From Escherichia coli (lineage in GTDB: Bacteria; Pseudomonadota; Gammaproteobacteria; Enterobacterales; Enterobacteriaceae), in assembly GCF_036507355.1 (NCBI RefSeq), contig NZ_AP027879.1: 47,389 nucleotides of DNA. One strand, 5' to 3'. Positions within the stretch are counted from its first letter, which is position 1, and each line of letters opens with the position of its first letter. A model generated the notes under the pieces. It was given only the letters and a program-made list of their open reading frames with translations, ran no database searches and had not been told where the DNA came from. The translations under genes were made by a program, and so were the position numbers. Of the stretch, positions 7,788-47,389 are shown one piece after another.

Positions 7788-7837
7788 CATAAATCAGCAC
7801 ACATGAGCCTGTCATTTGACAAATTTTTGTCATGAAG

Positions 7838-8370
7838 ATGGGCGGATTTCCACACAGCACCGGCGCCCGGTAAGGTGGGCGGATTTCCACACAGCACCGG
7901 CGCCCGGCAAGGTGGGCGGATTCCCACACGGCACCGGCGCGCGGCAAGGTGGGCGGATTCCCACACGGCACCGGCGCGCGGCAAGGTGGGCGGATTTCCA
8001 CACAGCACCGGCGCCCGGCAAGGTGGGCGGATTCCCACACGGCACCGGCGCGCGGCAAGGTGGGCGGATTCCCACACGGCACCGGCGCGCGGCAAGGTGG
8101 GCGGATTTCCACACAGCACCGGCGCCCGGCAAGGTGGGCGGATTCCCACACGGCACCGGCGCGCGGCAAGGTGGGCGGATTCCCACACGGCACCGGCGCG
8201 CGGCAAGGTGGGCGGATTTCCACACAGCACCGGCGCCCGGCAAGGTGGGCGGATTCCCACACGGCACCGGCGCGCGGCAAGGTGGGCGGATTCCCACACG
8301 GCACCGGCGCGCGGCAAGGTGGGCGGATTTCCACACGGCACCGGCGCCCGGCAAGGTGGGCCGATTCCCA
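7838..8370. repeat. About 14 tandem 37-bp iterons (GGGCGGATTYCCACACRGCACCGGCGCSCGGCAAGGT); IncN-like origin array
   Basis: Head-to-tail direct repeats with two alternating variants; no spacers. Confidence 0.75.
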
Positions 8371-8861: not shown

Positions 8862-9918
8862 GGCTTTGTTGAATAAATCGAACTTTTGCTGAGTTGAAGG
8901 ATCAGATCACGCATCTTCCCGACAACGCAGACCATTCCGTGGCAAAGCAAAAGTTCAAAATAACCAACTGGCCCACCTACAATAAAGCCCTCATCAACCG
9001 TGGCTCCATAACTTTCTGGCTGGATGATGAAGCTATTCAGGCCTGGTATGAGTCGGCAACGCCTTCATCACGGGGAAGACCTCAGCGCTATTCTGATCTC
9101 GCCATCACCACCGTTCTGGTCATTAAACGCGTGTTCAGGTTGACCCTGCGGGCTGCACAGGGTTTTATTGATTCCATTTTTACACTGATGAATGTTCCGT
9201 TGCGCTGCCCGGATTACACCAGTGTCAGCAAGCGCGCAAAGTCGGTTAATGTCAGTTTCAAAACGTTCACCCGGGGTGAAATCGCGCATCTGGTGATTGA
9301 TTCCACCGGGCTGAAGGTCTTTGGTGAAGGCGAATGGAAAGTCAAAAAGCATGGCCAGGAACGCCGTCGTATATGGCGAAAGTTGCATCTGGCAGTTGAC
9401 AGCAACACACATGAAATCATCTGTGCAAACCTGTCGCTGAACAATGTGACGGACTCAGAAGCCTTCCCGGGTCTTATCCGGCAGACTCACAGAAAAATCA
9501 GGGCAGCATCGGCAGACGGCGCTTACGACACCCAACTCTGTCACGATGAACTGCGGCGTAAGAAAATCAGCGCGCTTATCCCGCCCCGAAAAGGCGCGGG
9601 TTACTGGCCCGGTGAATATGCAGACCGTAACCGTGCTGTTGCGAATCAGCGGCTGACCGGGAGTAATGCGCGGTGGAAATGGACAACAGATTACAACCGT
9701 CGCTCGATAGCGGAAACGGCGATGTACCGGGTAAAACAGCTGTTCGGAGGTTCACTGACACTGCGTGACTACGATGGTCAGGTTGCAGAGGCTATGGCCC
9801 TGGTACGAGCGCTGAACAAAATGACGAAAGCAGGTATGCCTGAAAGCGTGCGTATTGCCTGAAAACACAACCCGCTACGGGGGAGACTTACCCGAAATCT
9901 GATTTATTCAACAAAGCC
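8862..9918 (+). mobile_element. IS903-group insertion sequence (IS5 family), complete, 1057 bp
   Basis: 18-bp terminal inverted repeats GGCTTTGTTGAATAAATC; length matches IS903. Confidence 0.85.
8939..9862 (+). CDS. tnpA: IS903 transposase, 307 aa
   Basis: GTG start at VAKQKFKITNW; DDE transposase of the IS5 family. Confidence 0.85.
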   Translation: MAKQKFKITNWPTYNKALINRGSITFWLDDEAIQAWYESATPSSRGRPQRYSDLAITTVLVIKRVFRLTLRAAQGFIDSIFTLMNVPLRCPDYTSVSKRAKSVNVSFKTFTRGEIAHLVIDSTGLKVFGEGEWKVKKHGQERRRIWRKLHLAVDSNTHEIICANLSLNNVTDSEAFPGLIRQTHRKIRAASADGAYDTQLCHDELRRKKISALIPPRKGAGYWPGEYADRNRAVANQRLTGSNARWKWTTDYNRRSIAETAMYRVKQLFGGSLTLRDYDGQVAEAMALVRALNKMTKAGMPESVRIA

Positions 9919-10936: not shown

Positions 10937-11870
10937 GGCTTTGTTGAATAAATCGAACTTTTGCTGAGTTGAAGGATCAGATCACGCATCTTCCCGACAA
11001 CGCAGACCGTTCCGTGGCAAAGCAAAAGTTCAAAATAACCAACTGGCCCACCTACAATAAAGCCCTCATCAACCGTGGCTCCATAACTTTCTGGCTGGAT
11101 GATGAAGCTATTCAGGCCTGGTATGAGTCAGCAACACCTTCTTCACGAGGCAGACCTCAGCGCTATTCTGACCTTGCCATCACGACTGTGCTGGTCATTA
11201 AACGCGTATTCAGGCTGACCCTGCGCGCTGCGCAGGGCTTTATTGATTCCATTTTTTCTCTGATGAACGTTCCGCTACGCTGCCCGGATTACAGCTGTGT
11301 CAGCAGGCGGGCAAAGTCGGTTAACGTCAGTTTCAAAACGTTCACCCGGGGTGAAATCGCGCATCTGGTGATTGATTCCACCGGGCTGAAGGTCTTTGGT
11401 GAAGGCGAGTGGAAAGTCAAAAAGCATGGCCAGGAACGCCGTCGTATATGGCGAAAGTTGCATCTGGCAGTTGACAGCAACACACATGAAATCATCTGTG
11501 CAGACCTGTCGCTGAACAATGTGACGGACTCAGAAGCCTTCCCGGGTCTTATCCGGCAGACTCACAGAAAAATCAGGGCAGCATCGGCAGACGGCGCTTA
11601 CGACACCCGGCTCTGTCACGATGAACTGCGGCGTAAGAAAATCAGCGCGCTTATCCCTCCCCGAAAAGGTGCGGGTTACTGGCCCGGTGAATATGCAGAC
11701 CGTAACCGTGCAGTGGCTAATCAGCGAATGACCGGGAGTAATGCGCGGTGGAAATGGACAACAGATTACAACCGTCGCTCGATAGCGGAAACGGCGATGT
11801 ACCGGGTAAAACAGCTGTTCGGGGGTTCACTGACGCTGCGTGACTACGATGGTCAGGTTGCGGAGGCTAT
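10937..11870 (+). mobile_element. Second IS903-group copy, 3'-truncated, lacks right IR
   Basis: Left IR intact; homology ends near 11870 where the Tn5393-type IR begins; several aa differences from copy 1. Confidence 0.75.
11014..11870 (+). pseudogene. tnpA: IS903-group transposase, 3'-truncated
   Basis: Reading frame runs into Tn5393 IR sequence after aa about 286. Confidence 0.6.
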
Positions 11871-11950
11871 GGGGTCGTTTGCGGGAGAGGGCGAAATCCT
11901 ACGCTAAGGCTTTGGCCAGCGATATTCTCCGGTAAGATTGATGTGTTCCC
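11870..11950. repeat. Tn5393-type 81-bp terminal inverted repeat
   Basis: GGGGTCGTTTGCGGGA... immediately downstream of the strB stop; a second, slightly divergent copy at 28388-28468. Confidence 0.55.
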
Positions 11951-11976
11951 AGGGGATAGGAGAAGTCGCTTGATAT

Positions 11977-12688
11977 CTAGTATGACGTCTGTCGCACCTG
12001 CTTGATCGCGGCCGCGATAGCTAGATCGCGTTGCTCCTCTTCTCCATCCGCGTTCCAAGCTGCGGAAAGGCACCCATAAGCGTACGCCTGGTCGAGCAGG
12101 CGACGCGGATCGACGTCCAGCGCACGAGAGAATGCGTCCGCCATCTGTGCAATGCGTCTAGGATCGAGACAAAGGTCGTCTCTGTCAGCCGGATCGTAGA
12201 ACATATTGGCGGCGCCAAAGCCCACTTCACCGACCAGACCGACGGGATCTATCACCAGCCAGCCGCGACTGGAGAACATGATGTTTTCATGATGCAGATC
12301 GCCATGTAGCCCACGCAGTTCCGAGGCATTGCTCATCATTTGATCGGCTATAATCGCCGCGTGGACGTAGTCAGTTTGACAACCTGCGTTTTGATCATCG
12401 CGCGCCCGCTGAAACAAAGCTGCAAAGCGATCCCGGATCGGGAGAAGGGCAGAAGGCAGGGGTTCCTCAGATGCGGCATACAGCTTCGCCATTAGTTCCG
12501 CTGCAATTTCGGTCGCCTGGTAGTCGCCGTGCTCGGCAACGATGTGAGAGAGCATTCGCTCCCCGGCATATTCGAGCAACATCAGATTGTTCTCACGACC
12601 GAGCAACCGGACTGCTCCCCTCCCATTGCGCCATACCAGATAGTCGGCCCCGCGCAGTTCATCAGCAATGTCTTCTATAGGTTTCAAT
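11977..12688 (-). pseudogene. strB: aph(6)-Id (strB), 5'-truncated by IS26
   Basis: Matches the C-terminal 237 aa of the full StrB at 27526-28362; N-terminal codons derive from the IS26 end. Confidence 0.85.
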
Positions 12689-13508
12689 GGCACTGTTGCA
12701 AAGTTAGCGATGAGGCAGCCTTTTGTCTTATTCAAAGGCCTTACATTTCAAAAACTCTGCTTACCAGGCGCATTTCGCCCAGGGGATCACCATAATAAAA
12801 TGCTGAGGCCTGGCCTTTGCGTAGTGCACGCATCACCTCAATACCTTTGATGGTGGCGTAAGCCGTCTTCATGGATTTAAATCCCAGCGTGGCGTTGATT
12901 ATCCGTTTCAGTTTGCCATGATCGCATTCAATCACGTTGTTCCGGTACTTAATCTGTCGGTGTTCAACGTCAGACGGGCACCGGCCTTCGCGTTTGAGCA
13001 GAGCAAGCGCGCGACCATAGGCGGGCGCTTTATCCGTGTTGATGAATCGCGGGATCTGCCACTTCTTCACGTTGTTGAGGATTTTACCCAGAAACCGGTA
13101 TGCAGCTTTGCTGTTACGACGGGAGGAGAGATAAAAATCGACAGTGCGGCCCCGGCTGTCGACGGCCCGGTACAGATACGCCCAGCGGCCATTGACCTTC
13201 ACGTAGGTTTCATCCATGTGCCACGGGCAAAGATCGGAAGGGTTACGCCAGTACCAGCGCAGCCGTTTTTCCATTTCAGGCGCATAACGCTGAACCCAGC
13301 GGTAAATCGTGGAGTGATCGACATTCACTCCGCGTTCAGCCAGCATCTCCTGCAGCTCACGGTAACTGATGCCGTATTTGCAGTACCAGCGTACGGCCCA
13401 CAGAATGATGTCACGCTGAAAATGCCGGCCTTTGAATGGGTTCATGTGCAGCTCCATCAGCAAAAGGGGATGATAAGTTTATCACCACCGACTATTTGCA
13501 ACAGTGCC
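12689..13508 (-). mobile_element. IS26, complete, 820 bp (copy a)
   Basis: 14-bp terminal IRs GGCACTGTTGCAAA; Tnp26 ORF. Confidence 0.95.
12741..13445 (-). CDS. tnp26: IS26 transposase Tnp26, N at position 184
   Basis: [18 protein letters not shown]...; residue 184 is N ([10 protein letters not shown]). Confidence 0.95.
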   Translation of the reverse strand: MNPFKGRHFQRDIILWAVRWYCKYGISYRELQEMLAERGVNVDHSTIYRWVQRYAPEMEKRLRWYWRNPSDLCPWHMDETYVKVNGRWAYLYRAVDSRGRTVDFYLSSRRNSKAAYRFLGKILNNVKKWQIPRFINTDKAPAYGRALALLKREGRCPSDVEHRQIKYRNNVIECDHGKLKRIINATLGFKSMKTAYATIKGIEVMRALRKGQASAFYYGDPLGEMRLVSRVFEM

Positions 13509-19081: not shown

Positions 19082-19901
19082 GGCACTGTTGCAAATAGTC
19101 GGTGGTGATAAACTTATCATCCCCTTTTGCTGATGGAGCTGCACATGAACCCATTCAAAGGCCGGCATTTTCAGCGTGACATCATTCTGTGGGCCGTACG
19201 CTGGTACTGCAAATACGGCATCAGTTACCGTGAGCTGCAGGAGATGCTGGCTGAACGCGGAGTGAATGTCGATCACTCCACGATTTACCGCTGGGTTCAG
19301 CGTTATGCGCCTGAAATGGAAAAACGGCTGCGCTGGTACTGGCGTAACCCTTCCGATCTTTGCCCGTGGCACATGGATGAAACCTACGTGAAGGTCAATG
19401 GCCGCTGGGCGTATCTGTACCGGGCCGTCGACAGCCGGGGCCGCACTGTCGATTTTTATCTCTCCTCCCGTCGTAACAGCAAAGCTGCATACCGGTTTCT
19501 GGGTAAAATCCTCAACAACGTGAAGAAGTGGCAGATCCCGCGATTCATCAACACGGATAAAGCGCCCGCCTATGGTCGCGCGCTTGCTCTGCTCAAACGC
19601 GAAGGCCGGTGCCCGTCTGACGTTGAACACCGACAGATTAAGTACCGGAACAACGTGATTGAATGCGATCATGGCAAACTGAAACGGATAATCAACGCCA
19701 CGCTGGGATTTAAATCCATGAAGACGGCTTACGCCACCATCAAAGGTATTGAGGTGATGCGTGCACTACGCAAAGGCCAGGCCTCAGCATTTTATTATGG
19801 TGATCCCCTGGGCGAAATGCGCCTGGTAAGCAGAGTTTTTGAAATGTAAGGCCTTTGAATAAGACAAAAGGCTGCCTCATCGCTAACTTTGCAACAGTGC
19901 C
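19082..19901 (+). mobile_element. IS26, complete (copy b)
   Basis: 14-bp IRs, 820 bp. Confidence 0.95.
19145..19849 (+). CDS. tnp26: IS26 transposase Tnp26, N at position 184
   Basis: Identical protein to copy a. Confidence 0.95.
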   Translation: MNPFKGRHFQRDIILWAVRWYCKYGISYRELQEMLAERGVNVDHSTIYRWVQRYAPEMEKRLRWYWRNPSDLCPWHMDETYVKVNGRWAYLYRAVDSRGRTVDFYLSSRRNSKAAYRFLGKILNNVKKWQIPRFINTDKAPAYGRALALLKREGRCPSDVEHRQIKYRNNVIECDHGKLKRIINATLGFKSMKTAYATIKGIEVMRALRKGQASAFYYGDPLGEMRLVSRVFEM

Positions 19902-24193: not shown

Positions 24194-24447
24194 GGCACTG
24201 TTGCAAATAGTCGGTGGTGATAAACTTATCATCCCCTTTTGCTGATGGAGCTGCACATGAACCCATTCAAAGGCCGGCATTTTCAGCGTGACATCATTCT
24301 GTGGGCCGTACGCTGGTACTGCAAATACGGCATCAGTTACCGTGAGCTGCAGGAGATGCTGGCTGAACGCGGAGTGAATGTCGATCACTCCACGATTTAC
24401 CGCTGGGTTCAGCGTTATGCGCCTGAAATGGAAAAACGGCTGCGCTG
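24194..24447 (+). mobile_element. IS26 fragment (first about 254 bp including IRL and tnp 5' end)
   Basis: Identical to the IS26 left end; interrupted by inverted complete IS26 copy c. Confidence 0.8.
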
Positions 24448-24448
24448 G

Positions 24449-25268
24449 GGCACTGTTGCAAAGTTAGCGATGAGGCAGCCTTTTGTCTTATTCAAAGGCC
24501 TTACATTTCAAAAACTCTGCTTACCAGGCGCATTTCGCCCAGGGGATCACCATAATAAAATGCTGAGGCCTGGCCTTTGCGTAGTGCACGCATCACCTCA
24601 ATACCTTTGATGGTGGCGTAAGCCGTCTTCATGGATTTAAATCCCAGCGTGGCGTTGATTATCCGTTTCAGTTTGCCATGATCGCATTCAATCACGTTGT
24701 TCCGGTACTTAATCTGTCGGTGTTCAACGTCAGACGGGCACCGGCCTTCGCGTTTGAGCAGAGCAAGCGCGCGACCATAGGCGGGCGCTTTATCCGTGTT
24801 GATGAATCGTGGGATCTGCCACTTCTTCACGTTGTTGAGGATTTTACCCAGAAACCGGTATGCAGCTTTGCTGTTACGACGGGAGGAGAGATAAAAATCG
24901 ACAGTGCGGCCCCGGCTGTCGACGGCCCGGTACAGATACGCCCAGCGGCCATTGACCTTCACGTAGGTTTCATCCATGTGCCACGGGCAAAGATCGGAAG
25001 GGTTACGCCAGTACCAGCGCAGCCGTTTTTCCATTTCAGGCGCATAACGCTGAACCCAGCGGTAAATCGTGGAGTGATCGACATTCACTCCGCGTTCAGC
25101 CAGCATCTCCTGCAGCTCACGGTAACTGATGCCGTATTTGCAGTACCAGCGTACGGCCCACAGAATGATGTCACGCTGAAAATGCCGGCCTTTGAATGGG
25201 TTCATGTGCAGCTCCATCAGCAAAAGGGGATGATAAGTTTATCACCACCGACTATTTGCAACAGTGCC
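24449..25268 (-). mobile_element. IS26, complete (copy c)
   Basis: 14-bp IRs, 820 bp. Confidence 0.95.
24501..25205 (-). CDS. tnp26: IS26 transposase Tnp26, N at position 184
   Basis: Same protein as copies a and b. Confidence 0.95.
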
Positions 25269-27526: not shown

Positions 27527-28362
27527 TGTTCATGCCGCCTGTTTTTCCTGCTCATTGGCACGTTTCGCAACCTGTTCTCATTGCGGACACCTTTTCCAGC
27601 CTCGTTTGGAAAGTTTCATTGCCAGACGGGACTCCTGCAATCGTCAAGGGATTGAAACCTATAAAAGACATTGCTGATGAACTGCGCGGGGCCGACTATC
27701 TGGTATGGCGCAATGGGAGGGGAGCAGTCCGGTTGCTCGGTCGTGAGAACAATCTGATGTTGCTCGAATATGCCGGGGAGCGAATGCTCTCTCACATCGT
27801 TGCCGAGCACGGCGACTACCAGGCGACCGAAATTGCAGCGGAACTAATGGCGAAGCTGTATGCCGCATCTGAGGAACCCCTGCCTTCTGCCCTTCTCCCG
27901 ATCCGGGATCGCTTTGCAGCTTTGTTTCAGCGGGCGCGCGATGATCAAAACGCAGGTTGTCAAACTGACTACGTCCACGCGGCGATTATAGCCGATCAAA
28001 TGATGAGCAATGCCTCGGAACTGCGTGGGCTACATGGCGATCTGCATCATGAAAACATCATGTTCTCCAGTCGCGGCTGGCTGGTGATAGATCCCGTCGG
28101 TCTGGTCGGTGAAGTGGGCTTTGGCGCCGCCAATATGTTCTACGATCCGGCTGACAGAGACGACCTTTGTCTCGATCCTAGACGCATTGCACAGATGGCG
28201 GACGCATTCTCTCGTGCGCTGGACGTCGATCCGCGTCGCCTGCTCGACCAGGCGTACGCTTATGGGTGCCTTTCCGCAGCTTGGAACGCGGATGGAGAAG
28301 AGGAGCAACGCGATCTAGCTATCGCGGCCGCGATCAAGCAGGTGCGACAGACGTCATACTAG
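27526..28362 (+). CDS. strB: Aminoglycoside 6-phosphotransferase APH(6)-Id
   Basis: 278 aa from MFMPPVFPAHW; 1-bp overlap with the strA stop. Confidence 0.95.
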   Translation: MFMPPVFPAHWHVSQPVLIADTFSSLVWKVSLPDGTPAIVKGLKPIKDIADELRGADYLVWRNGRGAVRLLGRENNLMLLEYAGERMLSHIVAEHGDYQATEIAAELMAKLYAASEEPLPSALLPIRDRFAALFQRARDDQNAGCQTDYVHAAIIADQMMSNASELRGLHGDLHHENIMFSSRGWLVIDPVGLVGEVGFGAANMFYDPADRDDLCLDPRRIAQMADAFSRALDVDPRRLLDQAYAYGCLSAAWNADGEEEQRDLAIAAAIKQVRQTSY

Positions 28363-28387
28363 ATATCAAGCGACTTCTCCTATCCCC

Positions 28388-28468
28388 TGGGAACACATCA
28401 ATCTCACCGGAGAATATCGCTGGCCAAAGCCTTAGCGTAGGATTCCGCCCCTTCCCGCAAACGACCCC
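28388..28468. repeat. Tn5393-type 81-bp terminal inverted repeat downstream of strB
   Basis: Reverse complement begins GGGGTCGTTTGCGGGAAGGGG. Confidence 0.5.
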
Positions 28469-28717: not shown

Positions 28718-29032
28718 CTAGATCTATCTCATCTGCGCAAGGCAGAACGTGAAGACGGCCGCCCTGGACCTCGCCCGCGAGCGCCAGGCGCACGAGGCCG
28801 GCGCGCGGACCCGCGCCACGGCCCACGAGCGGACGCCGCAGCAGGAGCGCCAGAAGGCCGCCAGAGAGGCCGAGCGCGGCCGTGAGGCTTGGACGCTAGG
28901 GCAGGGCATGAAAAAGCCCGTAGCGGGCTGCTACGGGCGTCTGACGCGGTGGAAAGGGGGAGGGGATGTTGTCTACATGGCTCTGCTGTAGTGAGTGGGT
29001 TGCGCTCCGGCAGCGGTCCTGAGCGGTCCTGA

Positions 29033-29683
29033 TCAATCGTCACCCTTTCTCGGTCCTTCAACGTTCCTGACAACGAGCCTCCTTTTCGCCAATCCATCGA
29101 CAATCACCGCGAGTCCCTGCTCGAACGCTGCGTCCGGACGGGCTTCGTCGAAGGCGTCTATCGCGGCCCGCAACAGCGGCGAGAGCGGAGCCTGTTCAAC
29201 GGTGCCGCCGCGCTCGCCGGCATCGCTGTCGCCGGCCTGCTCCTCAAGCACGGCCCCAACAGTGAAGTAGCTGATTGTCATCAGCGCATTGACGGCGTCC
29301 CCGGCCGAAAAACCCGCCTCGCAGAGGAAGCGAAGCTGCGCGTCGGCCGTTTCCATCTGCGGTGCGCCCGGTCGCGTGCCGGAATGGATGCGCGCGCCAT
29401 CGCGGTAGGCGAGCAGCGCCTGCCTGAAGCTGCGGGCATTCCCGATCAGAAATGAGCGCCAGTCGTCGTCGGCTCTCGGCACCGAATGCGTATGATTCTC
29501 CGCCAGCATGGCTTCGGCCAGTGCGTCGAGCAGCGCCCGCTTGTTCCTGAAGTGCCAGTAAAGCGCCGGCTGCTGAACCCCCAACCGTTCCGCCAGTTTG
29601 CGTGTCGTCAGACCGTCTACGCCGACCTCGTTCAACAGGTCCAGGGCGGCACGGATCACTGTATTCGGCTGCAACTTTGTCAT
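29033..29683 (-). CDS. tetR: Tetracycline repressor TetR, class A (variant copy)
   Basis: 216 aa from MTKLQPNTVIRAALDLL; differs from the second copy at two residues. Confidence 0.95.
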   Translation of the reverse strand: MTKLQPNTVIRAALDLLNEVGVDGLTTRKLAERLGVQQPALYWHFRNKRALLDALAEAMLAENHTHSVPRADDDWRSFLIGNARSFRQALLAYRDGARIHSGTRPGAPQMETADAQLRFLCEAGFSAGDAVNALMTISYFTVGAVLEEQAGDSDAGERGGTVEQAPLSPLLRAAIDAFDEARPDAAFEQGLAVIVDGLAKRRLVVRNVEGPRKGDD

Positions 29684-29692
29684 GCTTGACAC

Positions 29693-29788
29693 TTTATCAC
29701 TGATAAATATAATATGTCCACCAACTTATCAGTGATAAAGAATCCGCGCGTTCAATCGGACCAGCGGAGGCTGGTCCGGAGGCCAGAC
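29693..29788. promoter_or_regulatory. tetR/tetA divergent promoter region with tet operator palindromes
   Basis: ACTTTATCACTGATAAA and CTTATCAGTGATAAAG between the divergent genes. Confidence 0.7.
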
Positions 29789-30988
29789 GTGAAACCCAAC
29801 AGACCCCTGATCGTAATTCTGAGCACTGTCGCGCTCGACGCTGTCGGCATCGGCCTGATTATGCCGGTGCTGCCGGGCCTCCTGCGCGATCTGGTTCACT
29901 CGAACGACGTCGCCGCCCACTATGGCATTCTGCTGGCGCTGTATGCGTTGATGCAATTTGCCTGCGCACCTGTGCTGGGTGCGCTGTCGGATCGTTTCGG
30001 GCGGCGGCCGGTCTTGCTCGTCTCGCTGGCCGGCGCTGCTGTCGACTACGCCATCATGGCGACGGCGCCTTTCCTTTGGGTTCTCTATATCGGGCGGATC
30101 GTGGCCGGCATCACCGGGGCGACTGGGGCGGTAGCCGGCGCTTATATTGCCGATATCACTGATGGCGATGAGCGCGCGCGGCACTTCGGCTTCATGAGCG
30201 CCTGTTTCGGGTTCGGGATGGTCGCGGGACCTGTGCTCGGTGGGCTGATGGGCGGTTTCTCCCCCCACGCTCCGTTCTTCGCCGCGGCAGCCTTGAACGG
30301 CCTCAATTTCCTGACGGGCTGTTTCCTTTTGCCGGAGTCGCACAAAGGCGAACGCCGGCCGTTACGCCGGGAGGCTCTCAACCCGCTCGCTTCGTTCCGG
30401 TGGGCCCGGGGCATGACCGTCGTCGCCGCCCTGATGGCGGTCTTCTTCATCATGCAACTTGTCGGACAGGTGCCGGCCGCGCTTTGGGTCATTTTCGGCG
30501 AGGATCGCTTTCACTGGGACGCGACCACGATCGGCATTTCGCTTGCCGCATTTGGCATTCTGCATTCACTCGCCCAGGCAATGATCACCGGCCCTGTAGC
30601 CGCCCGGCTCGGCGAAAGGCGGGCACTCATGCTCGGAATGATTGCCGACGGCACAGGCTACATCCTGCTTGCCTTCGCGACACGGGGATGGATGGCGTTC
30701 CCGATCATGGTCCTGCTTGCTTCGGGTGGCATCGGAATGCCGGCGCTGCAAGCAATGTTGTCCAGGCAGGTGGATGAGGAACGTCAGGGGCAGCTGCAAG
30801 GCTCACTGGCGGCGCTCACCAGCCTGACCTCGATCGTCGGACCCCTCCTCTTCACGGCGATCTATGCGGCTTCTATAACAACGTGGAACGGGTGGGCATG
30901 GATTGCAGGCGCTGCCCTCTACTTGCTCTGCCTGCCGGCGCTGCGTCGCGGGCTTTGGAGCGGCGCAGGGCAACGAGCCGATCGCTGA
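29789..30988 (+). CDS. tetA: Tetracycline efflux MFS pump TetA, class A (variant copy)
   Basis: 399 aa from GTG at VKPNRPLIVILSTVALDAVGIG; three aa differences from the second copy. Confidence 0.95.
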   Translation: MKPNRPLIVILSTVALDAVGIGLIMPVLPGLLRDLVHSNDVAAHYGILLALYALMQFACAPVLGALSDRFGRRPVLLVSLAGAAVDYAIMATAPFLWVLYIGRIVAGITGATGAVAGAYIADITDGDERARHFGFMSACFGFGMVAGPVLGGLMGGFSPHAPFFAAAALNGLNFLTGCFLLPESHKGERRPLRREALNPLASFRWARGMTVVAALMAVFFIMQLVGQVPAALWVIFGEDRFHWDATTIGISLAAFGILHSLAQAMITGPVAARLGERRALMLGMIADGTGYILLAFATRGWMAFPIMVLLASGGIGMPALQAMLSRQVDEERQGQLQGSLAALTSLTSIVGPLLFTAIYAASITTWNGWAWIAGAALYLLCLPALRRGLWSGAGQRADR

Positions 30989-31359
30989 TAGAGGTTTATA
31001 GCGGCTTCGTTCCCTTCCGCAACCGTCAGCATGATCTGCTCCACATGCTCGCGGCCATAGTCTATCACCGCCCGCAGCAGCATACCGGCGACCCCTCGGC
31101 CTCGCTGTTCGGGCTCCACGAAAACGCCGGACAGATGCGCCTTGTGAGCGTCCTTGGGGCCGTCCTCCTGTTTGAAGACCGACAGCCCAATGATCTCGCC
31201 GTCGATGTAGGCGCCGAATGCCACGGCATCTCGCAACCGTTCAGCGAACGCCTCCATGGGCTTTTTCTCCTCGTGCTCGTAAACGGACCCGAACATCTCT
31301 GGAGCTTTCTTCAGGGCCGACAATCGGATCTCGCCGAAATGCCTGCCGTTGCTAGACAT
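30989..31359 (-). pseudogene. GNAT-family N-acetyltransferase, 3'-truncated at the tetA boundary
   Basis: First about 123 codons GNAT-like (QRGRGVAGMLLRAVIDYGRE); frame continues into antisense tetA. Confidence 0.5.
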
Positions 31360-37326: not shown

Positions 37327-37595
37327 TCAACCCGGTCCTTTTTTCAGTCCACTTGCGGTTTTCATTGTTACTTTGTCATAGCGTCGTGTCAGAATGCGGC
37401 AGAGAACAGCGTTTACTATCAACGCAACACCAGACCAGAAAAACCATGTATTAACACCTATAACCTCAACAACCGGACCTGCAACAAGTAAGCCTATCGG
37501 CATAGAAAGAGTCATGGCGGTCATCAAAAGGGAAAACACCTTGCCCATCATTTCAGGGGCAATGCTTTCTTGAACATAAGCCATAACAGGAACAT
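37327..37595 (-). pseudogene. mefB: MFS efflux pump C-terminal fragment (likely mef(B)), 5'-truncated by IS26
   Basis: Hydrophobic TM-like C-terminus; frame opens at the IS26 boundary. Confidence 0.45.
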
Positions 37596-38415
37596 GGCAC
37601 TGTTGCAAAGTTAGCGATGAGGCAGCCTTTTGTCTTATTCAAAGGCCTTACATTTCAAAAACTCTGCTTACCAGGCGCATTTCGCCCAGGGGATCACCAT
37701 AATAAAATGCTGAGGCCTGGCCTTTGCGTAGTGCACGCATCACCTCAATACCTTTGATGGTGGCGTAAGCCGTCTTCATGGATTTAAATCCCAGCGTGGC
37801 GCCGATTATCCGTTTCAGTTTGCCATGATCGCATTCAATCACGTTGTTCCGGTACTTAATCTGTCGGTGTTCAACGTCAGACGGGCACCGGCCTTCGCGT
37901 TTGAGCAGAGCAAGCGCGCGACCATAGGCGGGCGCTTTATCCGTGTTGATGAATCGCGGGATCTGCCACTTCTTCACGTTGTTGAGGATTTTACCCAGAA
38001 ACCGGTATGCAGCTTTGCTGTTACGACGGGAGGAGAGATAAAAATCGACAGTGCGGCCCCGGCTGTCGACGGCCCGGTACAGATACGCCCAGCGGCCATT
38101 GACCTTCACGTAGGTTTCATCCATGTGCCACGGGCAAAGATCGGAAGGGTTACGCCAGTACCAGCGCAGCCGTTTTTCCATTTCAGGCGCATAACGCTGA
38201 ACCCAGCGGTAAATCGTGGAGTGATCGACATTCACTCCGCGTTCAGCCAGCATCTCCTGCAGCTCACGGTAACTGATGCCGTATTTGCAGTACCAGCGTA
38301 CGGCCCACAGAATGATGTCACGCTGAAAATGCCGGCCTTTGAATGGGTTCATGTGCAGCTCCATCAGCAAAAGGGGATGATAAGTTTATCACCACCGACT
38401 ATTTGCAACAGTGCC
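37596..38415 (-). mobile_element. IS26, complete (copy d)
   Basis: 14-bp IRs, 820 bp. Confidence 0.95.
37648..38352 (-). CDS. tnp26: IS26 transposase Tnp26, G at position 184
   Basis: [10 protein letters not shown]. Confidence 0.95.
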   Translation of the reverse strand: MNPFKGRHFQRDIILWAVRWYCKYGISYRELQEMLAERGVNVDHSTIYRWVQRYAPEMEKRLRWYWRNPSDLCPWHMDETYVKVNGRWAYLYRAVDSRGRTVDFYLSSRRNSKAAYRFLGKILNNVKKWQIPRFINTDKAPAYGRALALLKREGRCPSDVEHRQIKYRNNVIECDHGKLKRIIGATLGFKSMKTAYATIKGIEVMRALRKGQASAFYYGDPLGEMRLVSRVFEM

Positions 38416-38598
38416 GTCCTGCGAATATGTGAGTTTTGACCTAATGAGCCACAAAAACTCATTTTCGCCCACGATAATTTTTCTACTTCCTTTCTTTGGA
38501 ATGCTCATTTCAATATTCACATAACGTCGCTATCAATCGCGGAAAAGGCGTAGTGCGCGAAGCGAACGAAGCTTTTTGCCGTCGATTGCATAGCTTTG
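38416..38598 (-). other. Region downstream of the dfrA cassette, expected to hold its attC; truncated by IS26
   Basis: Position between dfrA stop and IS26; attC not delimited. Confidence 0.3.
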
Positions 38599-39081
38599 TT
38601 AACCCTTTTTCCAAATTTGATAGCAATAGTTAATGTTTGAAGTAAAGTGTTGCTCAAAAACAACTTCGAAGGTATTTGGAATACTCGGGAAGAAAACATC
38701 CCCCTCTGGCTCGATGTCGATCGTCGATAAGTGGAGCGTAGAGGCCATGGGTAATGTTTCTCGGTAAATTTCTCCGCCACCAGACACTATAACGTGACCG
38801 GTGAATTCAGCTAGCCTGTCCATGGCCTCTTCGATTGACTGAAATACAACTACATTGTCATCATTTGATGTCCAACCTGAGCGGGTAACGACCGCGTATT
38901 TCCTATTGGGGAGTGCGCCCATAGATTCAAACGTCTTGCGACCCACCAGAAGCCACTGATTGTAGGTCAATGCTTTAAAAAGTAGCTGCTCCCCTTTCGC
39001 GGACCAGGGTATGTCTGGACCGCAACCAATCACGCCGTTTTTCGCTTTCGCAGCCATCAATGATACTTTCAAGGTTCTCAT
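38599..39081 (-). CDS. dfrA14: Trimethoprim-resistant dihydrofolate reductase DfrA (dfrA14/dfrA5 group)
   Basis: 160-aa ORF; type B DHFR; allele assignment from recalled sequence is tentative. Confidence 0.8.
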
Positions 39082-39227
39082 CCTGGGTTAACTTTGTTTT
39101 AGGGCGACTGCCCTGCTGCGTAACATCGTTGCTGCTCCATAACATCAAACATCGACCCACGGCGTAACGCGCTTGCTGCTTGGATGCCCGAGGCATAGAC
39201 TGTACAAAAAAACAGTCATAACAAGCC
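39082..39227. promoter_or_regulatory. attI1 recombination site region of a class 1 integron
   Basis: GCCCTAAAACAAAGTTAACC between intI1 start and the first cassette. Confidence 0.6.
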
Positions 39228-40233
39228 ATGAAAACCGCCACTGCGCCGTTACCACCGCTGCGTTCGGTCAAGGTTCTGGACCAGTTGCGTGAGCGCATAC
39301 GCTACTTGCATTACAGTTTACGAACCGAACAGGCTTATGTCCACTGGGTTCGTGCCTTCATCCGTTTCCACGGTGTGCGTCACCCGGCAACCTTGGGCAG
39401 CAGCGAAGTCGAGGCATTTCTGTCCTGGCTGGCGAACGAGCGCAAGGTTTCGGTCTCCACGCATCGTCAGGCATTGGCGGCCTTGCTGTTCTTCTACGGC
39501 AAGGTGCTGTGCACGGATCTGCCCTGGCTTCAGGAGATCGGAAGACCTCGGCCGTCGCGGCGCTTGCCGGTGGTGCTGACCCCGGATGAAGTGGTTCGCA
39601 TCCTCGGTTTTCTGGAAGGCGAGCATCGTTTGTTCGCCCAGCTTCTGTATGGAACGGGCATGCGGATCAGTGAGGGTTTGCAACTGCGGGTCAAGGATCT
39701 GGATTTCGATCACGGCACGATCATCGTGCGGGAGGGCAAGGGCTCCAAGGATCGGGCCTTGATGTTACCCGAGAGCTTGGCACCCAGCCTGCGCGAGCAG
39801 CTGTCGCGTGCACGGGCATGGTGGCTGAAGGACCAGGCCGAGGGCCGCAGCGGCGTTGCGCTTCCCGACGCCCTTGAGCGGAAGTATCCGCGCGCCGGGC
39901 ATTCCTGGCCGTGGTTCTGGGTTTTTGCGCAGCACACGCATTCGACCGATCCACGGAGCGGTGTCGTGCGTCGCCATCACATGTATGACCAGACCTTTCA
40001 GCGCGCCTTCAAACGTGCCGTAGAACAAGCAGGCATCACGAAGCCCGCCACACCGCACACCCTCCGCCACTCGTTCGCGACGGCCTTGCTCCGCAGCGGT
40101 TACGACATTCGAACCGTGCAGGATCTGCTCGGCCATTCCGACGTCTCTACGACGATGATTTACACGCATGTGCTGAAAGTTGGCGGTGCCGGAGTGCGCT
40201 CACCGCTTGATGCGCTGCCGCCCCTCACTAGTG
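39228..40233 (+). CDS. intI1: Class 1 integron integrase IntI1, last two codons and stop replaced by IS26
   Basis: [27 protein letters not shown]...; native frame ends at LDALPPLTS where IS26 begins. Confidence 0.9.
39315..39343 (-). promoter_or_regulatory. Integron cassette promoter Pc, PcH1-type (-35 TGGACA, -10 TAAACT)
   Basis: Hexamers on the cassette strand inside the intI1 5' coding region, 17-bp spacing. Confidence 0.6.
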
Positions 40234-41053
40234 GGCACTGTTGCAAAGTTAGCGATGAGGCAGCCTTTTGTCTTATTCAAAGGCCTTACATTTCAAAAAC
40301 TCTGCTTACCAGGCGCATTTCGCCCAGGGGATCACCATAATAAAATGCTGAGGCCTGGCCTTTGCGTAGTGCACGCATCACCTCAATACCTTTGATGGTG
40401 GCGTAAGCCGTCTTCATGGATTTAAATCCCAGCGTGGCGCCGATTATCCGTTTCAGTTTGCCATGATCGCATTCAATCACGTTGTTCCGGTACTTAATCT
40501 GTCGGTGTTCAACGTCAGACGGGCACCGGCCTTCGCGTTTGAGCAGAGCAAGCGCGCGACCATAGGCGGGCGCTTTATCCGTGTTGATGAATCGCGGGAT
40601 CTGCCACTTCTTCACGTTGTTGAGGATTTTACCCAGAAACCGGTATGCAGCTTTGCTGTTACGACGGGAGGAGAGATAAAAATCGACAGTGCGGCCCCGG
40701 CTGTCGACGGCCCGGTACAGATACGCCCAGCGGCCATTGACCTTCACGTAGGTTTCATCCATGTGCCACGGGCAAAGATCGGAAGGGTTACGCCAGTACC
40801 AGCGCAGCCGTTTTTCCATTTCAGGCGCATAACGCTGAACCCAGCGGTAAATCGTGGAGTGATCGACATTCACTCCGCGTTCAGCCAGCATCTCCTGCAG
40901 CTCACGGTAACTGATGCCGTATTTGCAGTACCAGCGTACGGCCCACAGAATGATGTCACGCTGAAAATGCCGGCCTTTGAATGGGTTCATGTGCAGCTCC
41001 ATCAGCAAAAGGGGATGATAAGTTTATCACCACCGACTATTTGCAACAGTGCC
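40234..41053 (-). mobile_element. IS26, complete (copy e)
   Basis: 14-bp IRs, 820 bp. Confidence 0.95.
40286..40990 (-). CDS. tnp26: IS26 transposase Tnp26, G at position 184
   Basis: Same protein as copy d. Confidence 0.95.
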
Positions 41054-41869
41054 CCGTTCAGCACCCGCGTGGTGAATGTCGGCGTCCGCGATTCCACCTA
41101 TGTGCTCGACGGCCTGCTGTACCACGAGTCCGACCTGCGGATCGAGGAGCACTACACCGACACGGCCGGCTTCACCGATCACGTCTTTGCCCTGATGCAC
41201 CTGCTAGGCTTCCGCTTCGCGCCGCGCATCCGCGACCTCGGCGAAACCAAGCTGTACGTGCCGCAGGGCGTGCAAGCCTACCCGACGTTGCGCCCGCTGA
41301 TCGGCGGCACCCTGAACATCAAGCACGTGCGTGCCCACTGGGACGACATCCTGCGCCTGGCCAGCTCGATCAAGCAGGGCACCGTCACCGCCTCGCTGAT
41401 GCTGCGCAAGCTCGGCAGCTACCCGCGCCAGAACGGACTGGCCGTGGCCCTGCGCGAGCTGGGCCGGATCGAGCGCACGCTGTTCATCCTGGACTGGCTG
41501 CAAAGTGTTGAACTGCGCCGCCGCGTGCATGCCGGCCTGAACAAAGGTGAGGCGCGCAACTCGCTGGCCAGGGCGGTGTTCTTCAACCGCCTTGGGGAAA
41601 TCAGGGATCGGAGCTTCGAGCAGCAGCGCTACCGGGCCAGCGGCCTCAACCTGGTGACGGCGGCTATCGTGCTGTGGAACACGGTGTACCTGGAACGCGC
41701 CACCCAGGGGTTGGTCGAGGCCGGCAAGCCGGTGGACGGCGAGCTGCTGCAATTCCTGTCGCCGCTGGGCTGGGAGCACATCAACCTAACCGGCGATTAC
41801 GTCTGGCGGCAGAGCCGCAGACTGGAAGACGGGAAGTTTCGGCCCTTACGGATGCCCGGAAAACCTTAG
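41054..41869 (+). pseudogene. tnpA: Tn1721-type TnpA, 3' 271 codons only (5'-truncated by IS26)
   Basis: Identical to the C-terminal part of the fragment at 45595-47357; ends in the Tn1721 IR. Confidence 0.8.
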
Positions 41870-41902
41870 CGTACGATTTTTTCCGAATTCTGCGGGCTCC
41901 CC
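41865..41902. repeat. Tn1721 38-bp inverted repeat (internal IR preceding the tet module)
   Basis: Reverse complement GGGGAGCCCGCAGAATTCGGAAAAAATCGTACGCTAAG. Confidence 0.8.
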
Positions 41903-42200
41903 TATCTCATCTGCGCAAGGCAGAACGTGAAGACGGCCGCCCTGGACCTCGCCCGCGAGCGCCAGGCGCACGAGGCCGGCGCGCGGACCCGCGCCACGGC
42001 CCACGAGCGGACGCCGCAGCAGGAGCGCCAGAAGGCCGCCAGAGAGGCCGAGCGCGGCCGTGAGGCTTGGACGCTAGGGCAGGGCATGAAAAAGCCCGTA
42101 GCGGGCTGCTACGGGCGTCTGACGCGGTGGAAAGGGGGAGGGGATGTTGTCTACATGGCTCTGCTGTAGTGAGTGGGTTGCGCTCCGGCAGCGGTCCTGA

Positions 42201-42851
42201 TCAATCGTCACCCTTTCTCGGTCCTTCAACGTTCCTGACAACGAGCCTCCTTTTCGCCAATCCATCGACAATCACCGCGAGTCCCTGCTCGAACGCTGCG
42301 TCCGGATCGGCTTCGTCGAAGGCGTCTATCGCGGCCCGCAACAGCGGCGAGAGCGGAGCCTGTTCAACGGTGCCGCCGCGCTCGCCGGCATCGCTGTCGC
42401 CGGCCTGCTCCTCAAGCACGGCCCCAACAGTGAAGTAGCTGATTGTCATCAGCGCATTGACGGCGTCCCCGGCCGAAAAACCCGCCTCGCAGAGGAAGCG
42501 AAGCTGCGCGTCGGCCGTTTCCATCTGCGGTGCGCCCGGTCGCGTGCCGGCATGGATGCGCGCGCCATCGCGGTAGGCGAGCAGCGCCTGCCTGAAGCTG
42601 CGGGCATTCCCGATCAGAAATGAGCGCCAGTCGTCGTCGGCTCTCGGCACCGAATGCGTATGATTCTCCGCCAGCATGGCTTCGGCCAGTGCGTCGAGCA
42701 GCGCCCGCTTGTTCCTGAAGTGCCAGTAAAGCGCCGGCTGCTGAACCCCCAACCGTTCCGCCAGTTTGCGTGTCGTCAGACCGTCTACGCCGACCTCGTT
42801 CAACAGGTCCAGGGCGGCACGGATCACTGTATTCGGCTGCAACTTTGTCAT
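42201..42851 (-). CDS. tetR: Tetracycline repressor TetR, class A (Tn1721-type copy)
   Basis: 216 aa from MTKLQ. Confidence 0.95.
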   Translation of the reverse strand: MTKLQPNTVIRAALDLLNEVGVDGLTTRKLAERLGVQQPALYWHFRNKRALLDALAEAMLAENHTHSVPRADDDWRSFLIGNARSFRQALLAYRDGARIHAGTRPGAPQMETADAQLRFLCEAGFSAGDAVNALMTISYFTVGAVLEEQAGDSDAGERGGTVEQAPLSPLLRAAIDAFDEADPDAAFEQGLAVIVDGLAKRRLVVRNVEGPRKGDD

Positions 42852-42860
42852 GCTTGACAC

Positions 42861-42956
42861 TTTATCACTGATAAACATAATATGTCCACCAACTTATCAG
42901 TGATAAAGAATCCGCGCGTTCAATCGGACCAGCGGAGGCTGGTCCGGAGGCCAGAC
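42861..42956. promoter_or_regulatory. tetR/tetA divergent promoter and operators
   Basis: Same operator palindromes as in copy 1. Confidence 0.7.
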
Positions 42957-44156
42957 GTGAAACCCAACAGACCCCTGATCGTAATTCTGAGCACTGTCGC
43001 GCTCGACGCTGTCGGCATCGGCCTGATTATGCCGGTGCTGCCGGGCCTCCTGCGCGATCTGGTTCACTCGAACGACGTCACCGCCCACTATGGCATTCTG
43101 CTGGCGCTGTATGCGTTGATGCAATTTGCCTGCGCACCTGTGCTGGGCGCGCTGTCGGATCGTTTCGGGCGGCGGCCGGTCTTGCTCGTCTCGCTGGCCG
43201 GCGCTGCTGTCGACTACGCCATCATGGCGACGACGCCTTTCCTTTGGGTTCTCTATATCGGGCGGATCGTGGCCGGCATCACCGGGGCGACTGGGGCGGT
43301 AGCCGGCGCTTATATTGCCGATATCACTGATGGCGATGAGCGCGCGCGGCACTTCGGCTTCATGAGCGCCTGTTTCGGGTTCGGGATGGTCGCGGGACCT
43401 GTGCTCGGTGGGCTGATGGGCGGTTTCTCCCCCCACGCTCCGTTCTTCGCCGCGGCAGCCTTGAACGGCCTCAATTTCCTGACGGGCTGTTTCCTTTTGC
43501 CGGAGTCGCACAAAGGCGAACGCCGGCCGTTACGCCGGGAGGCTCTCAACCCGCTCGCTTCGTTCCGGTGGGCCCGGGGCATGACCGTCGTCGCCGCCCT
43601 GATGGCGGTCTTCTTCATCATGCAACTTGTCGGACAGGTGCCGGCCGCGCTTTGGGTCATTTTCGGCGAGGATCGCTTTCACTGGGACGCGACCACGATC
43701 GGCATTTCGCTTGCCGCATTTGGCATTCTGCATTCACTCGCCCAGGCAATGATCACCGGCCCTGTAGCCGCCCGGCTCGGCGAAAGGCGGGCACTCATGC
43801 TCGGAATGATTGCCGACGGCACAGGCTACATCCTGCTTGCCTTCGCGACACGGGGATGGATGGCGTTCCCGATCATGGTCCTGCTTGCTTCGGGTGGCAT
43901 CGGAATGCCGGCGCTGCAAGCAATGTTGTCCAGGCAGGTGGATGAGGAACGTCAGGGGCAGCTGCAAGGCTCACTGGCGGCGCTCACCAGCCTGACCTCG
44001 ATCGTCGGACCCCTCCTCTTCACGGCGATCTATGCGGCTTCTATAACAACGTGGAACGGGTGGGCATGGATTGCAAGCGCTGCCCTCTACTTGCTCTGCC
44101 TGCCGGCGCTGCGTCGCGGGCTTTGGAGCGGCGCAGGGCAACGAGCCGATCGCTGA
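42957..44156 (+). CDS. tetA: Tetracycline efflux MFS pump TetA, class A (Tn1721-type copy)
   Basis: 399 aa from GTG. Confidence 0.95.
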   Translation: MKPNRPLIVILSTVALDAVGIGLIMPVLPGLLRDLVHSNDVTAHYGILLALYALMQFACAPVLGALSDRFGRRPVLLVSLAGAAVDYAIMATTPFLWVLYIGRIVAGITGATGAVAGAYIADITDGDERARHFGFMSACFGFGMVAGPVLGGLMGGFSPHAPFFAAAALNGLNFLTGCFLLPESHKGERRPLRREALNPLASFRWARGMTVVAALMAVFFIMQLVGQVPAALWVIFGEDRFHWDATTIGISLAAFGILHSLAQAMITGPVAARLGERRALMLGMIADGTGYILLAFATRGWMAFPIMVLLASGGIGMPALQAMLSRQVDEERQGQLQGSLAALTSLTSIVGPLLFTAIYAASITTWNGWAWIASAALYLLCLPALRRGLWSGAGQRADR

Positions 44157-44187
44157 TCGTGGAAACGATAGGCCTATGCCATGCGGG

Positions 44188-45594: not shown

Positions 45595-47357
45595 AACAGC
45601 ACGGGCCGGCCGCGCAAGGCGTGCTGGCAGCCGTGCAGACCCTGCGTGAGATGAACGCCGACAACCTGCGCAAGGTGCCGGCCGATGCACCCACGGCCTT
45701 CATCAAGCCGCGCTGGAAGCCGCTGGTGATCACCCCGGAAGGCCTCGACCGGAAATTCTACGAAATCTGCGCCCTGTCCGAGCTGAAGAACGCCCTGCGC
45801 TCCGGCGACATCTGGGTCAAGGGCTCGCGGCAGTTCCGCGACTTCGACGACTACCTGCTGCCGGCCGAGAAGTTCGCCGCACTCAAGCGCGAGCAGGCCC
45901 TGCCCCTGGCGATCAACCCGAACAGCGACCAGTACCTGGAAGAGCGTTTGCAGCTGCTGGACGAGCAGTTGGCCACCGTCACCCGCCTGGCCAAGGACAA
46001 CGAGCTGCCCGATGCCATCCTCACCGAGTCAGGGCTGAAAATCACCCCGCTGGATGCGGCGGTGCCGGATCGGGCGCAGGCGCTGATCGACCAAACCAGC
46101 CAGTTACTGCCGCGCATCAAGATCACCGAACTGCTGATGGACGTGGACGACTGGACGGGCTTCAGCCGCCACTTCACCCACTTGAAGGACGGGGCCGAGG
46201 CCAAAGACAGGACGTTGCTGCTGTCCGCAATCCTCGGTGATGCGATCAACCTCGGGCTGACCAAGATGGCCGAGTCGAGCCCCGGCCTGACCTACGCCAA
46301 GCTGTCCTGGCTGCAAGCCTGGCACATCCGCGACGAAACCTATTCGGCGGCCTTGGCCGAGCTGGTCAACCACCAGTATCGCCACGCCTTTGCCGCCCAC
46401 TGGGGCGACGGCACGACCTCATCCTCCGATGGCCAGCGCTTCCGCGCGGGTGGCCGGGGCGAGAGCACCGGGCACGTCAACCCGAAGTACGGTAGCGAGC
46501 CGGGACGGCTGTTCTATACCCATATCTCCGACCAGTACGCGCCGTTCAGCACCCGCGTGGTGAATGTCGGCGTCCGCGATTCCACCTATGTGCTCGACGG
46601 CCTGCTGTACCACGAGTCCGACCTGCGGATCGAGGAGCACTACACCGACACGGCCGGCTTCACCGATCACGTCTTTGCCCTGATGCACCTGCTAGGCTTC
46701 CGCTTCGCGCCGCGCATCCGCGACCTCGGCGAAACCAAGCTGTACGTGCCGCAGGGCGTGCAAGCCTACCCGACGTTGCGCCCGCTGATCGGCGGCACCC
46801 TGAACATCAAGCACGTGCGTGCCCACTGGGACGACATCCTGCGCCTGGCCAGCTCGATCAAGCAGGGCACCGTCACCGCCTCGCTGATGCTGCGCAAGCT
46901 CGGCAGCTACCCGCGCCAGAACGGACTGGCCGTGGCCCTGCGCGAGCTGGGCCGGATCGAGCGCACGCTGTTCATCCTGGACTGGCTGCAAAGTGTTGAA
47001 CTGCGCCGCCGCGTGCATGCCGGCCTGAACAAAGGTGAGGCGCGCAACTCGCTGGCCAGGGCGGTGTTCTTCAACCGCCTTGGGGAAATCAGGGATCGGA
47101 GCTTCGAGCAGCAGCGCTACCGGGCCAGCGGCCTCAACCTGGTGACGGCGGCTATCGTGCTGTGGAACACGGTGTACCTGGAACGCGCCACCCAGGGGTT
47201 GGTCGAGGCCGGCAAGCCGGTGGACGGCGAGCTGCTGCAATTCCTGTCGCCGCTGGGCTGGGAGCACATCAACCTAACCGGCGATTACGTCTGGCGGCAG
47301 AGCCGCAGACTGGAAGACGGGAAGTTTCGGCCCTTACGGATGCCCGGAAAACCTTAG
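45595..47357 (+). pseudogene. tnpA: Tn1721-type TnpA, 3' portion (the tnpA' remnant of Tn1721)
   Basis: About 590 C-terminal codons of a Tn3-family transposase ending in the Tn1721 IR. Confidence 0.8.
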
Positions 47358-47389
47358 CGTACGATTTTTTCCGAATTCTGCGGGCTCCC
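47353..47389. repeat. Tn1721 right inverted repeat, cut one base short by the window end
   Basis: CTTAGCGTACGATTTTTTCCGAATTCTGCGGGCTCCC. Confidence 0.8.

Follow-up and report, generated by a model that had tools for sequence, protein, structure and literature searches.

How did a class 1 integron with a single trimethoprim resistance cassette come to lie between two copies of IS26, and which piece of DNA moved? This question is raised by positions 37596-41053 of a 47,389-nucleotide stretch of Escherichia coli DNA (contig NZ_AP027879.1, assembly GCF_036507355.1), hereafter called the window. An earlier annotation from the letters alone, the original prediction, had described this region as a minimal class 1 integron bracketed by IS26. 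In this study, we compared the region with plasmid and chromosome sequences, determined its parts and weighed the routes by which it may have arrived. We conclude that it is very probably an IS26-bounded pseudo-compound transposon, and that the 1,818 bp it carries represent a class 1 integron, In191, trimmed down to its core.

The whole unit is 3,458 bp long and consists of two 820-bp IS26 copies around the passenger (38416-40233). Copy 1 lies at 37596-38415 and copy 2 at 40234-41053, both on the minus strand, with tnp26 coding sequences (CDS) at 37648-38352 (234 amino acids) and 40286-40990, respectively. The two copies are 100% identical to each other, have the same orientation and end in perfect terminal inverted repeats (TIRs) of 14 bp, GGCACTGTTGCAAA. 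The Tnp26 open reading frame (ORF) scored 275 bits against the IS6-family transposase model, and the DNA was identical to IS26 copies annotated with the standard Tnp26, WP_001067855.1, in other records. Between the copies lie a 109-bp non-cassette remnant, a complete dfrA14 cassette with its attC, attI1, the promoter PcH1 and a truncated intI1. A directly oriented IS26 pair with intact TIRs, intact tnp26 and a passenger in between is the structure of a pseudo-compound transposon. In addition, the unit was found in different contexts, and a counterpart of its site holds a single IS26. The original prediction had placed the cassette, attI1 and intI1 between two directly oriented IS26 and had given the whole the structure of an IS26 pseudo-compound transposon; the coordinates, the identical copies, the TIRs and the 234-residue ORF bear out both statements.

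Independent, complete assemblies of other plasmids contain all 3,458 bp of the unit in one piece at 100% identity, and the arrangement is therefore not due to chance. IS26 repeats often cause mis-assembly, and the window holds five full copies, which would favor an artefact of repeat collapse or mis-joining. However, the same arrangement with both flanks was found in two independent complete plasmids, pTB31P1 (Escherichia fergusonii, IncHI2A/IncN; 13.9 kb at 99.98% identity) and NZ_MW077913, and the unit with one flank formed single colinear pieces in many other plasmids. An assembly artefact is thus scarcely credible.

The E. coli collection was searched with the flanks included, for single-piece matches to the unit. 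The identical unit occurred in many plasmids of E. coli, E. fergusonii and other hosts, in at least four contexts. Besides the two plasmids with both flanks, pECO-6dfa and at least seven further E. coli plasmids from human, swine and wild bird sources shared only the right flank, in single 100% pieces. In pPM4-5-43k, the left flank and the unit were followed on the right by a qnrS1 module. In pBJ114T-190, the element lies between fosA3 and qnrS1 modules. Exact-match checks showed that this plasmid has the same 1,818-bp segment and both junctions, and that its left IS26 is a 414-bp fragment beside another full IS26. The passenger with both IS26 junctions was also observed beside an EF-Tu-like gene in a 4.9-Mb chromosome (AP025035.1, locus L011). 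In the fetched locus, the IS26 match extended over only 126-127 bp on each side.

The resistance gene of the unit was then identified. The original prediction was to fall if the single cassette gene proved not to be a dfrA allele; the cassette is dfrA14. It is complete (567 bp, 38525-39091, minus strand) and matches exactly the records annotated dfrA14, including sequences called dfrA14 at 100% by AMRFinderPlus, with the RefSeq protein WP_004201280.1. The CDS lies at 38599-39072 (157 amino acids, TTG start), with an alternative ATG at 39081. The product scored 300.4 bits against the DfrA1-like model (cut-off 250). The unit is accordingly predicted from its sequence to confer trimethoprim resistance via DfrA14, a drug-insensitive dihydrofolate reductase.

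The cassette ends in an attC at 38519-38604 on the minus strand, whose core sites were read from the sequence. R'' is GGTTAAC (38604-38598) and overlaps the dfrA14 stop codon, and R' is GTTATGT (38525-38519). The bottom strand of attC folds into an imperfect bulged hairpin (-19.9 kcal/mol, z = -3.5), and none of 200 shuffled sequences folded as well. The cassette boundaries also agree with those of two relatives with longer arrays, loci L017 and L018. Beyond the cassette, between it and IS26, lies the 109-bp remnant (38416-38524, minus strand), which the earlier annotation did not mention. It matches exactly the start of the spacer between dfrA14 and mobC of In191 in pHCM1 (locus L001). In pHCM1, this sequence runs on into a mobC-like ORF (Pfam MobC, 30.9 bits; cut-off 23.2) and then into IS6100. 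BLAST matches to dfrA14, dfrA5 and dfrA30 in other contexts break at query positions 104-108, which correspond to 38519-38523 of the window, and these breaks lend further support to the cassette boundary.

On the other side of the cassette, adjacent to intI1, is attI1, at approximately 39086-39155 on the minus strand. Its core, GTTAACC (39092-39086), has the form GTTRRRY expected at a cassette junction, with the crossover between 39092 and 39091. The 1,142-bp segment of the 5'-conserved segment (5'-CS) is identical to that of pHCM1, and the attI1 junction is the exact place at which L017 and L018 carry four extra cassettes. On the plus strand, TTGCTG and TAGACT, separated by 17 nt (39173-39201), together with the overlapping sequence CTGTACAAAAAAACAG (39200-39215), are what we take, from established knowledge, to be the intI1 promoter Pint and its LexA box; the two span 39173-39215. 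A LexA site that overlaps the intI1 promoter is mentioned in the literature (PMC2791841).

The cassette promoter Pc lies inside intI1 at 39315-39343 on the minus strand and is directed toward the cassette. It has TGGACA (39343-39338), a 17-nt spacer and TAAACT (39320-39315), and the -10 hexamer is preceded by TCG, so that there is no TGN-extended -10. PcH1 is defined by these hexamers, a 17-bp spacer and no TGN, and corresponds to the IntI1 variant R32_H39 (PMC2791841, Tables 1 and 3). R32 and H39 were both read from our translation, and the claim that Pc is the PcH1 combination thus agrees with the published definition on all counts. The P2 hexamers, TTGTTA and TACAGT (39199-39224, minus strand), are separated by 14 nt and lack the GGG insertion. 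Since active P2 has a 17-nt spacer (PMC2791841, Table 1), this P2 is the inactive form. A promoter scan of 38380-39500 returned only Pc and one weak site on the plus strand. Reading of the sequence at both inner junctions found no acceptable -10 for an outward hybrid promoter from the -35 (TTGCAA) of the IS26 ends. As the first and only cassette, dfrA14 would be transcribed from PcH1, a promoter of intermediate strength, from which we infer its expression level.

The intI1 gene occupies 39228-40233 on the plus strand and is cut after codon 335 of 337. IS26 starts after the first base of codon 336, and the final Glu-Arg-stop is lost. Residues 1-335 were identical (335/335) to the full 337-residue IntI1 of pHCM1. 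The protein scored 797 bits against NF011946 (cut-off 435) over profile positions 1-336 of 337, and its residues 16-330 covered the integron integrase model TIGR02249 in full (1-315 of 315). The claim that IntI1 lacks only its last two codons and stop therefore stands as far as the cut is concerned, but the ORF is not simply truncated. Its frame stays open for 35 codons into IS26, to position 40340, and yields a 370-residue IntI1::IS26 read-through product, which RefSeq annotates as IntI1 (WP_024166810.1) in pTB31P1, pBJ114T-190 and pECO-6dfa. The catalytic Tyr312 (motif TMIYTHV) and all residues upstream are kept, and the last two residues are exchanged for 35 encoded by IS26. Judged from these residues, activity of the fused integrase is plausible.

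These parts raise the question of which integron the passenger came from. An intI1 integrase gene, attI1, Pc within intI1 and a cassette ending in attC together make it a class 1 integron. The features of a sul1-type integron or Tn402 derivative, namely the 3'-conserved segment (3'-CS) and IRi/IRt, were not present. A search across the whole window found no qacEdelta1 motif, and the ORFs tested included sul2 and sul3 but no sul1, in line with the earlier claim that the 3'-CS is missing. IRi is absent because the passenger ends inside intI1; on the cassette side, the passenger ends 109 bp past the cassette. The platform itself is nearly intact, with attI1, a complete attC, and Pint with its LexA box. 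Since IRi, the 3'-CS, mobC/IS6100 and any tni genes have been lost, the integron cannot move as a Tn402-type element, and its mobility now depends on IS26.

The remnant, the cassette and the 5'-CS from attI1 to intI1 codon 335 are exactly identical to pHCM1. Published In191 has the order 'IRi, 5'-CS, dfrA14, mobC-IRt-IS6100' and has no 3'-CS or tni genes (PMC7319535). Because of the exact identity to pHCM1, and because the order dfrA14-mobC-IS6100 in that plasmid is as in published In191, we identify the passenger as an IS26-trimmed In191 core. The label itself appears appropriate, as the dfrA14-only array agrees with the array so named in papers (PMC9816190, PMC7319535) and with pHCM1.

We next asked where the two cuts were made. 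A complete integron may have been resident at this site and trimmed here by two independent IS26 insertions or deletions. Each junction is widespread singly, which shows that such trimming has taken place at some site. Without its counterpart, and together with a full-length intI1 and a tnpR fragment, the cassette-side junction occurs in numerous IncFII plasmids of Klebsiella pneumoniae of about 85-87 kb, for example p4_L39. In the assembly collection, 1,105 indexed blocks contain the intI1-side junction, which encodes the 370-residue fusion protein. At least four arrays occur together with this junction: dfrA14; arr-cmlA-blaOXA-10-aadA1-dfrA14; dfrA12-gcuF-aadA2-cmlA-aadA1; and a dfrA17-aadA5-like array. 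However, the identical, doubly trimmed 1,818 bp recurs in at least four unrelated contexts, which indicates that the trimming predates arrival at this site. Furthermore, the sequences that flank the unit are neither integron nor Tn21/Tn402 sequence. Trimming in place is therefore very unlikely.

The flanks were examined to determine how the unit arrived. On the left, 37327-37595 (minus strand) is a 3' remnant of mef(B) cut by IS26 (positions 327-406 of 409 of NF000051 Mef(B)), which lies outside the unit and downstream of sul3-GrpB-SDR. The mef(B)/IS26 junction was also found in pPS10-3-tetX, pTB31P1 and pPM4-5-43k. On the right, also outside the unit, IS26 cuts a Tn1721-type tnpA, whose 3' end remains at 41054-41901 (plus strand; positions 703-954 of 954 of a Tn3-family transposase) and is followed by tetR(A)-tet(A). 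This second junction occurs in pPS10-3-tetX, pTB31P1 and pECO-6dfa. No 8-bp target-site duplication surrounds the whole unit, and the flanking sequences AGGAACAT and CCGTTCAG are unrelated. Likewise, no duplication, direct or reverse-complement, was found around each IS26 singly or in pECO-6dfa (CGGCCCGCAGCT / CCGTTCAGCACC).

The plasmid pPS10-3-tetX has 500 bp of left-flank sequence, a single IS26 of identical sequence and 500 bp of right-flank sequence in one uninterrupted stretch. A span of 5,855-5,871 bp with a single IS26 was present in at least seven plasmids among the matches listed. As a single IS26 lies between the same flanks elsewhere, the window differs from these plasmids by exactly 2,638 bp, that is, one IS26 and the 1,818-bp passenger. 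A resistance gene between two intact IS26 would suit a 3,458-bp classical composite transposon in which both IS26 move together as one unit. Against this, the 8-bp duplication is missing, as AGGAACAT and CCGTTCAG show, and the counterpart site already holds an IS26 at exactly the same position. Moreover, the flanks, the 3' ends of mef(B) and of Tn1721 tnpA, are unrelated truncated genes and not the halves of one target. IS26 is also reported to form only cointegrates (PMC8477213). Such a transposon is highly improbable here. Since there is no 8-bp duplication and plasmids with a single IS26 exist at the same site, the moved or exchanged entity is more likely the 2,638-bp unit than the 3.5-kb structure.

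We therefore propose a route for the 2,638-bp unit. A translocatable unit of this size would have joined beside an IS26 resident between the truncated mef(B) and the truncated Tn1721 tnpA. Joining may have occurred by the targeted conservative reaction of Tnp26 or by RecA-dependent recombination between IS26 copies, neither of which would duplicate the target. Translocatable units and the targeted conservative route have been reported to yield such structures without duplication, and homologous recombination of directly oriented IS26 copies is a further source of the units (PMC8722046). The two flanking IS26 have one and the same sequence, and 2-3 single-nucleotide polymorphisms (SNPs) separate it from the window's three further IS26.

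The RecA-dependent route could also have acted by itself, between two plasmids and without Tnp26 activity. The partners would have been a plasmid like pECO-6dfa (IS26-dfrA14-intI1-IS26-truncated tnpA-tet(A)) and one like pPS10-3-tetX (sul3-truncated mef(B)-IS26-truncated tnpA-tet(A)), and they would have crossed over where their sequences coincide, in IS26 and in truncated tnpA/tet(A). Both parent configurations exist, with IS26 and right-flank sequence identical to the window's. It is accepted that translocatable units and rearrangements can arise when IS26 copies undergo homologous recombination (PMC8722046), and such recombination would leave no duplication, as was observed. On the other hand, its product has the same sequence as that of the Tnp26 targeted conservative route, which readily makes such structures in published experiments (PMC8722046). 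Recombination by RecA only is possible but doubtful, and it does not exclude the best explanation, of which it is one version.

Several points weigh against the proposed arrival of the unit at an existing IS26. First, loss of the unit by recombination between its two IS26 would be the reverse event and would produce plasmids with a single IS26. For this reason the exchange may have run in either direction, and the plasmids with one IS26 may be later products instead of forerunners. Second, incorporation by Tnp26 and recombination by RecA are not separable in the resulting DNA. Third, the candidate partners share long homologies, namely IS26 and the truncated tnpA-tet(A) region. Finally, the PLSDB counts of the junctions (about 386 plasmids for the cassette side and about 630 for the intI1 side) are approximate, because separate BLAST pieces were joined into one 'place' and some records may not have a true junction. 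In the PLSDB ranking, records with extra joined IS26 pieces outranked true single-piece matches, and only counts per junction were obtained. Nothing contradicted the identity of the element.

The relatives with longer arrays bear on the fused integrase. Both IS26 junctions are present in L017 and L018, and only two differences set these loci apart from the window: a four-cassette block (arr, cmlA, blaOXA-10, aadA1; about 3.99 kb) and one SNP, which changes PcH1 to PcW. As this block lies exactly at the attI1/dfrA14 boundary, an integrase-type event separates the unit of the window from L017 and L018. We tentatively suggest that the 370-residue fusion integrase may be active and that the IS26-bounded integron may have kept gaining or losing cassettes after its capture, although we would rather expect that this was not so. 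The cassette block at attI1 and the presence of the fusion junction beside at least four different arrays hint at such activity. Equally compatible with the array differences are IntI1 acting in trans, cassette events before the IS26 cuts, and homologous exchange within the 5'-CS. If the fusion is active, the unit would be a self-sufficient integron platform that is portable by IS26 and independent of Tn402/Tn21.

Taken as a whole, the window has the mosaic make-up typical of multiresistance regions on Enterobacteriaceae plasmids, with qnrS1, floR-ISCR, sul2-strAB, two copies of tetR(A)-tet(A), blaTEM, sul3 and five IS26. No single PLSDB record covers it entirely. Its right-hand 14 kb is shared with pTB31P1, typed IncHI2A/IncN. 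The two tetR(A)-tet(A) copies, at 28724-30989 and 41902-44157, are 99.2% identical (8 mismatches, 1 gap) and hold two tet(A) alleles that differ slightly. The Tn1721-type tnpA 3' end is also present twice, in direct orientation and at 99.9% identity (41051-41901 and 46539-47389), around tetR(A)-tet(A) and an EamA-family transporter gene; this repeat presumably reflects the known internal duplication of Tn1721. The three further complete IS26 lie at 12689-13508, 19082-19901 and 24449-25268, one of them inverted, and a 255-bp inverted IS26 fragment (24194-24448) abuts the copy at 24449. An inverted repeat of 818 bp (99.4%) was found at 11871-12688 and 27651-28468. One arm overlaps the 3' end of aph(6)-I (strB) and the other abuts the IS26 at 12689, an arrangement that points to inversion or duplication by IS26. 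Two IS5-family (IS903-like) transposase genes, at 8862-9797 and 10937-11872 in direct orientation, are only 95.7% identical and are thus different variants rather than copies of one element. At 7835-8370, a 37-bp G+C-rich unit is repeated 14.5 times in tandem (94% matches), and we assume that these repeats may be the iterons of a replication origin of the IncN type.

The structure is already known, common and widely spread as a trimethoprim resistance module. Its importance is practical and not conceptual, and the understanding of integrons and IS26 is unchanged. The 2.6-kb unit allows IS26 to pass trimethoprim resistance between plasmids of E. coli, Klebsiella, Salmonella and related hosts, and the two IS26 junctions are useful as epidemiological markers. 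Published precedents include 'IS26-IntI1-dfrA14-IS26', assigned to In191 (PMC9816190), 'PcH1 intI1-dfrA14-IS26', reported in 2014 (KF921535; PMC4129628), and dfrA14-IS26 integrons with identical matches in diverse hosts (PMC8209733).

Compared with In191 of pHCM1 (Salmonella Typhi CT18) and of pKPN3-type Klebsiella plasmids, the passenger has the same 5'-CS, dfrA14 cassette, first 109 bp beyond it and PcH1, and likewise no 3'-CS. Published In191 has IRi, a full-length intI1 and mobC-IRt-IS6100, whereas in the window IS26 replaces everything beyond codon 335 and beyond the 109 bp. The 'IS26-IntI1-dfrA14-IS26' structure of the K. pneumoniae IncFII(pCRY) plasmids pXJ-K2-p3, p4-L388 and p4_L39 shares the IS26/remnant/dfrA14 junction, the cassette, the 5'-CS and the direct IS26. 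However, these plasmids have a full-length intI1 (WP_000845048.1) and a tnpR fragment before the second IS26, which lengthens their passenger by about 0.9 kb. IS26 pseudo-compound transposons and translocatable units were reportedly described by Harmer, Moran and Hall in 2014 and by Harmer, Pong and Hall in 2020. Those such as Tn4352, Tn6020 and the blaTEM-1B one resemble the unit in their direct identical IS26, the lack of a duplication, the single-IS26 counterpart and the arrays beside other IS26. In contrast to these, the passenger in the window appears to be an almost functional integron platform and not a simple resistance gene. The IS26-bounded arr-cmlA-blaOXA-10-aadA1-dfrA14 array (L016-L018; compare the array in PMC10098456) has the same IS26 junctions and truncated intI1, but carries four extra cassettes (about 3.99 kb) and has TAAGCT (PcW) as its Pc -10, where the window has TAAACT (PcH1).

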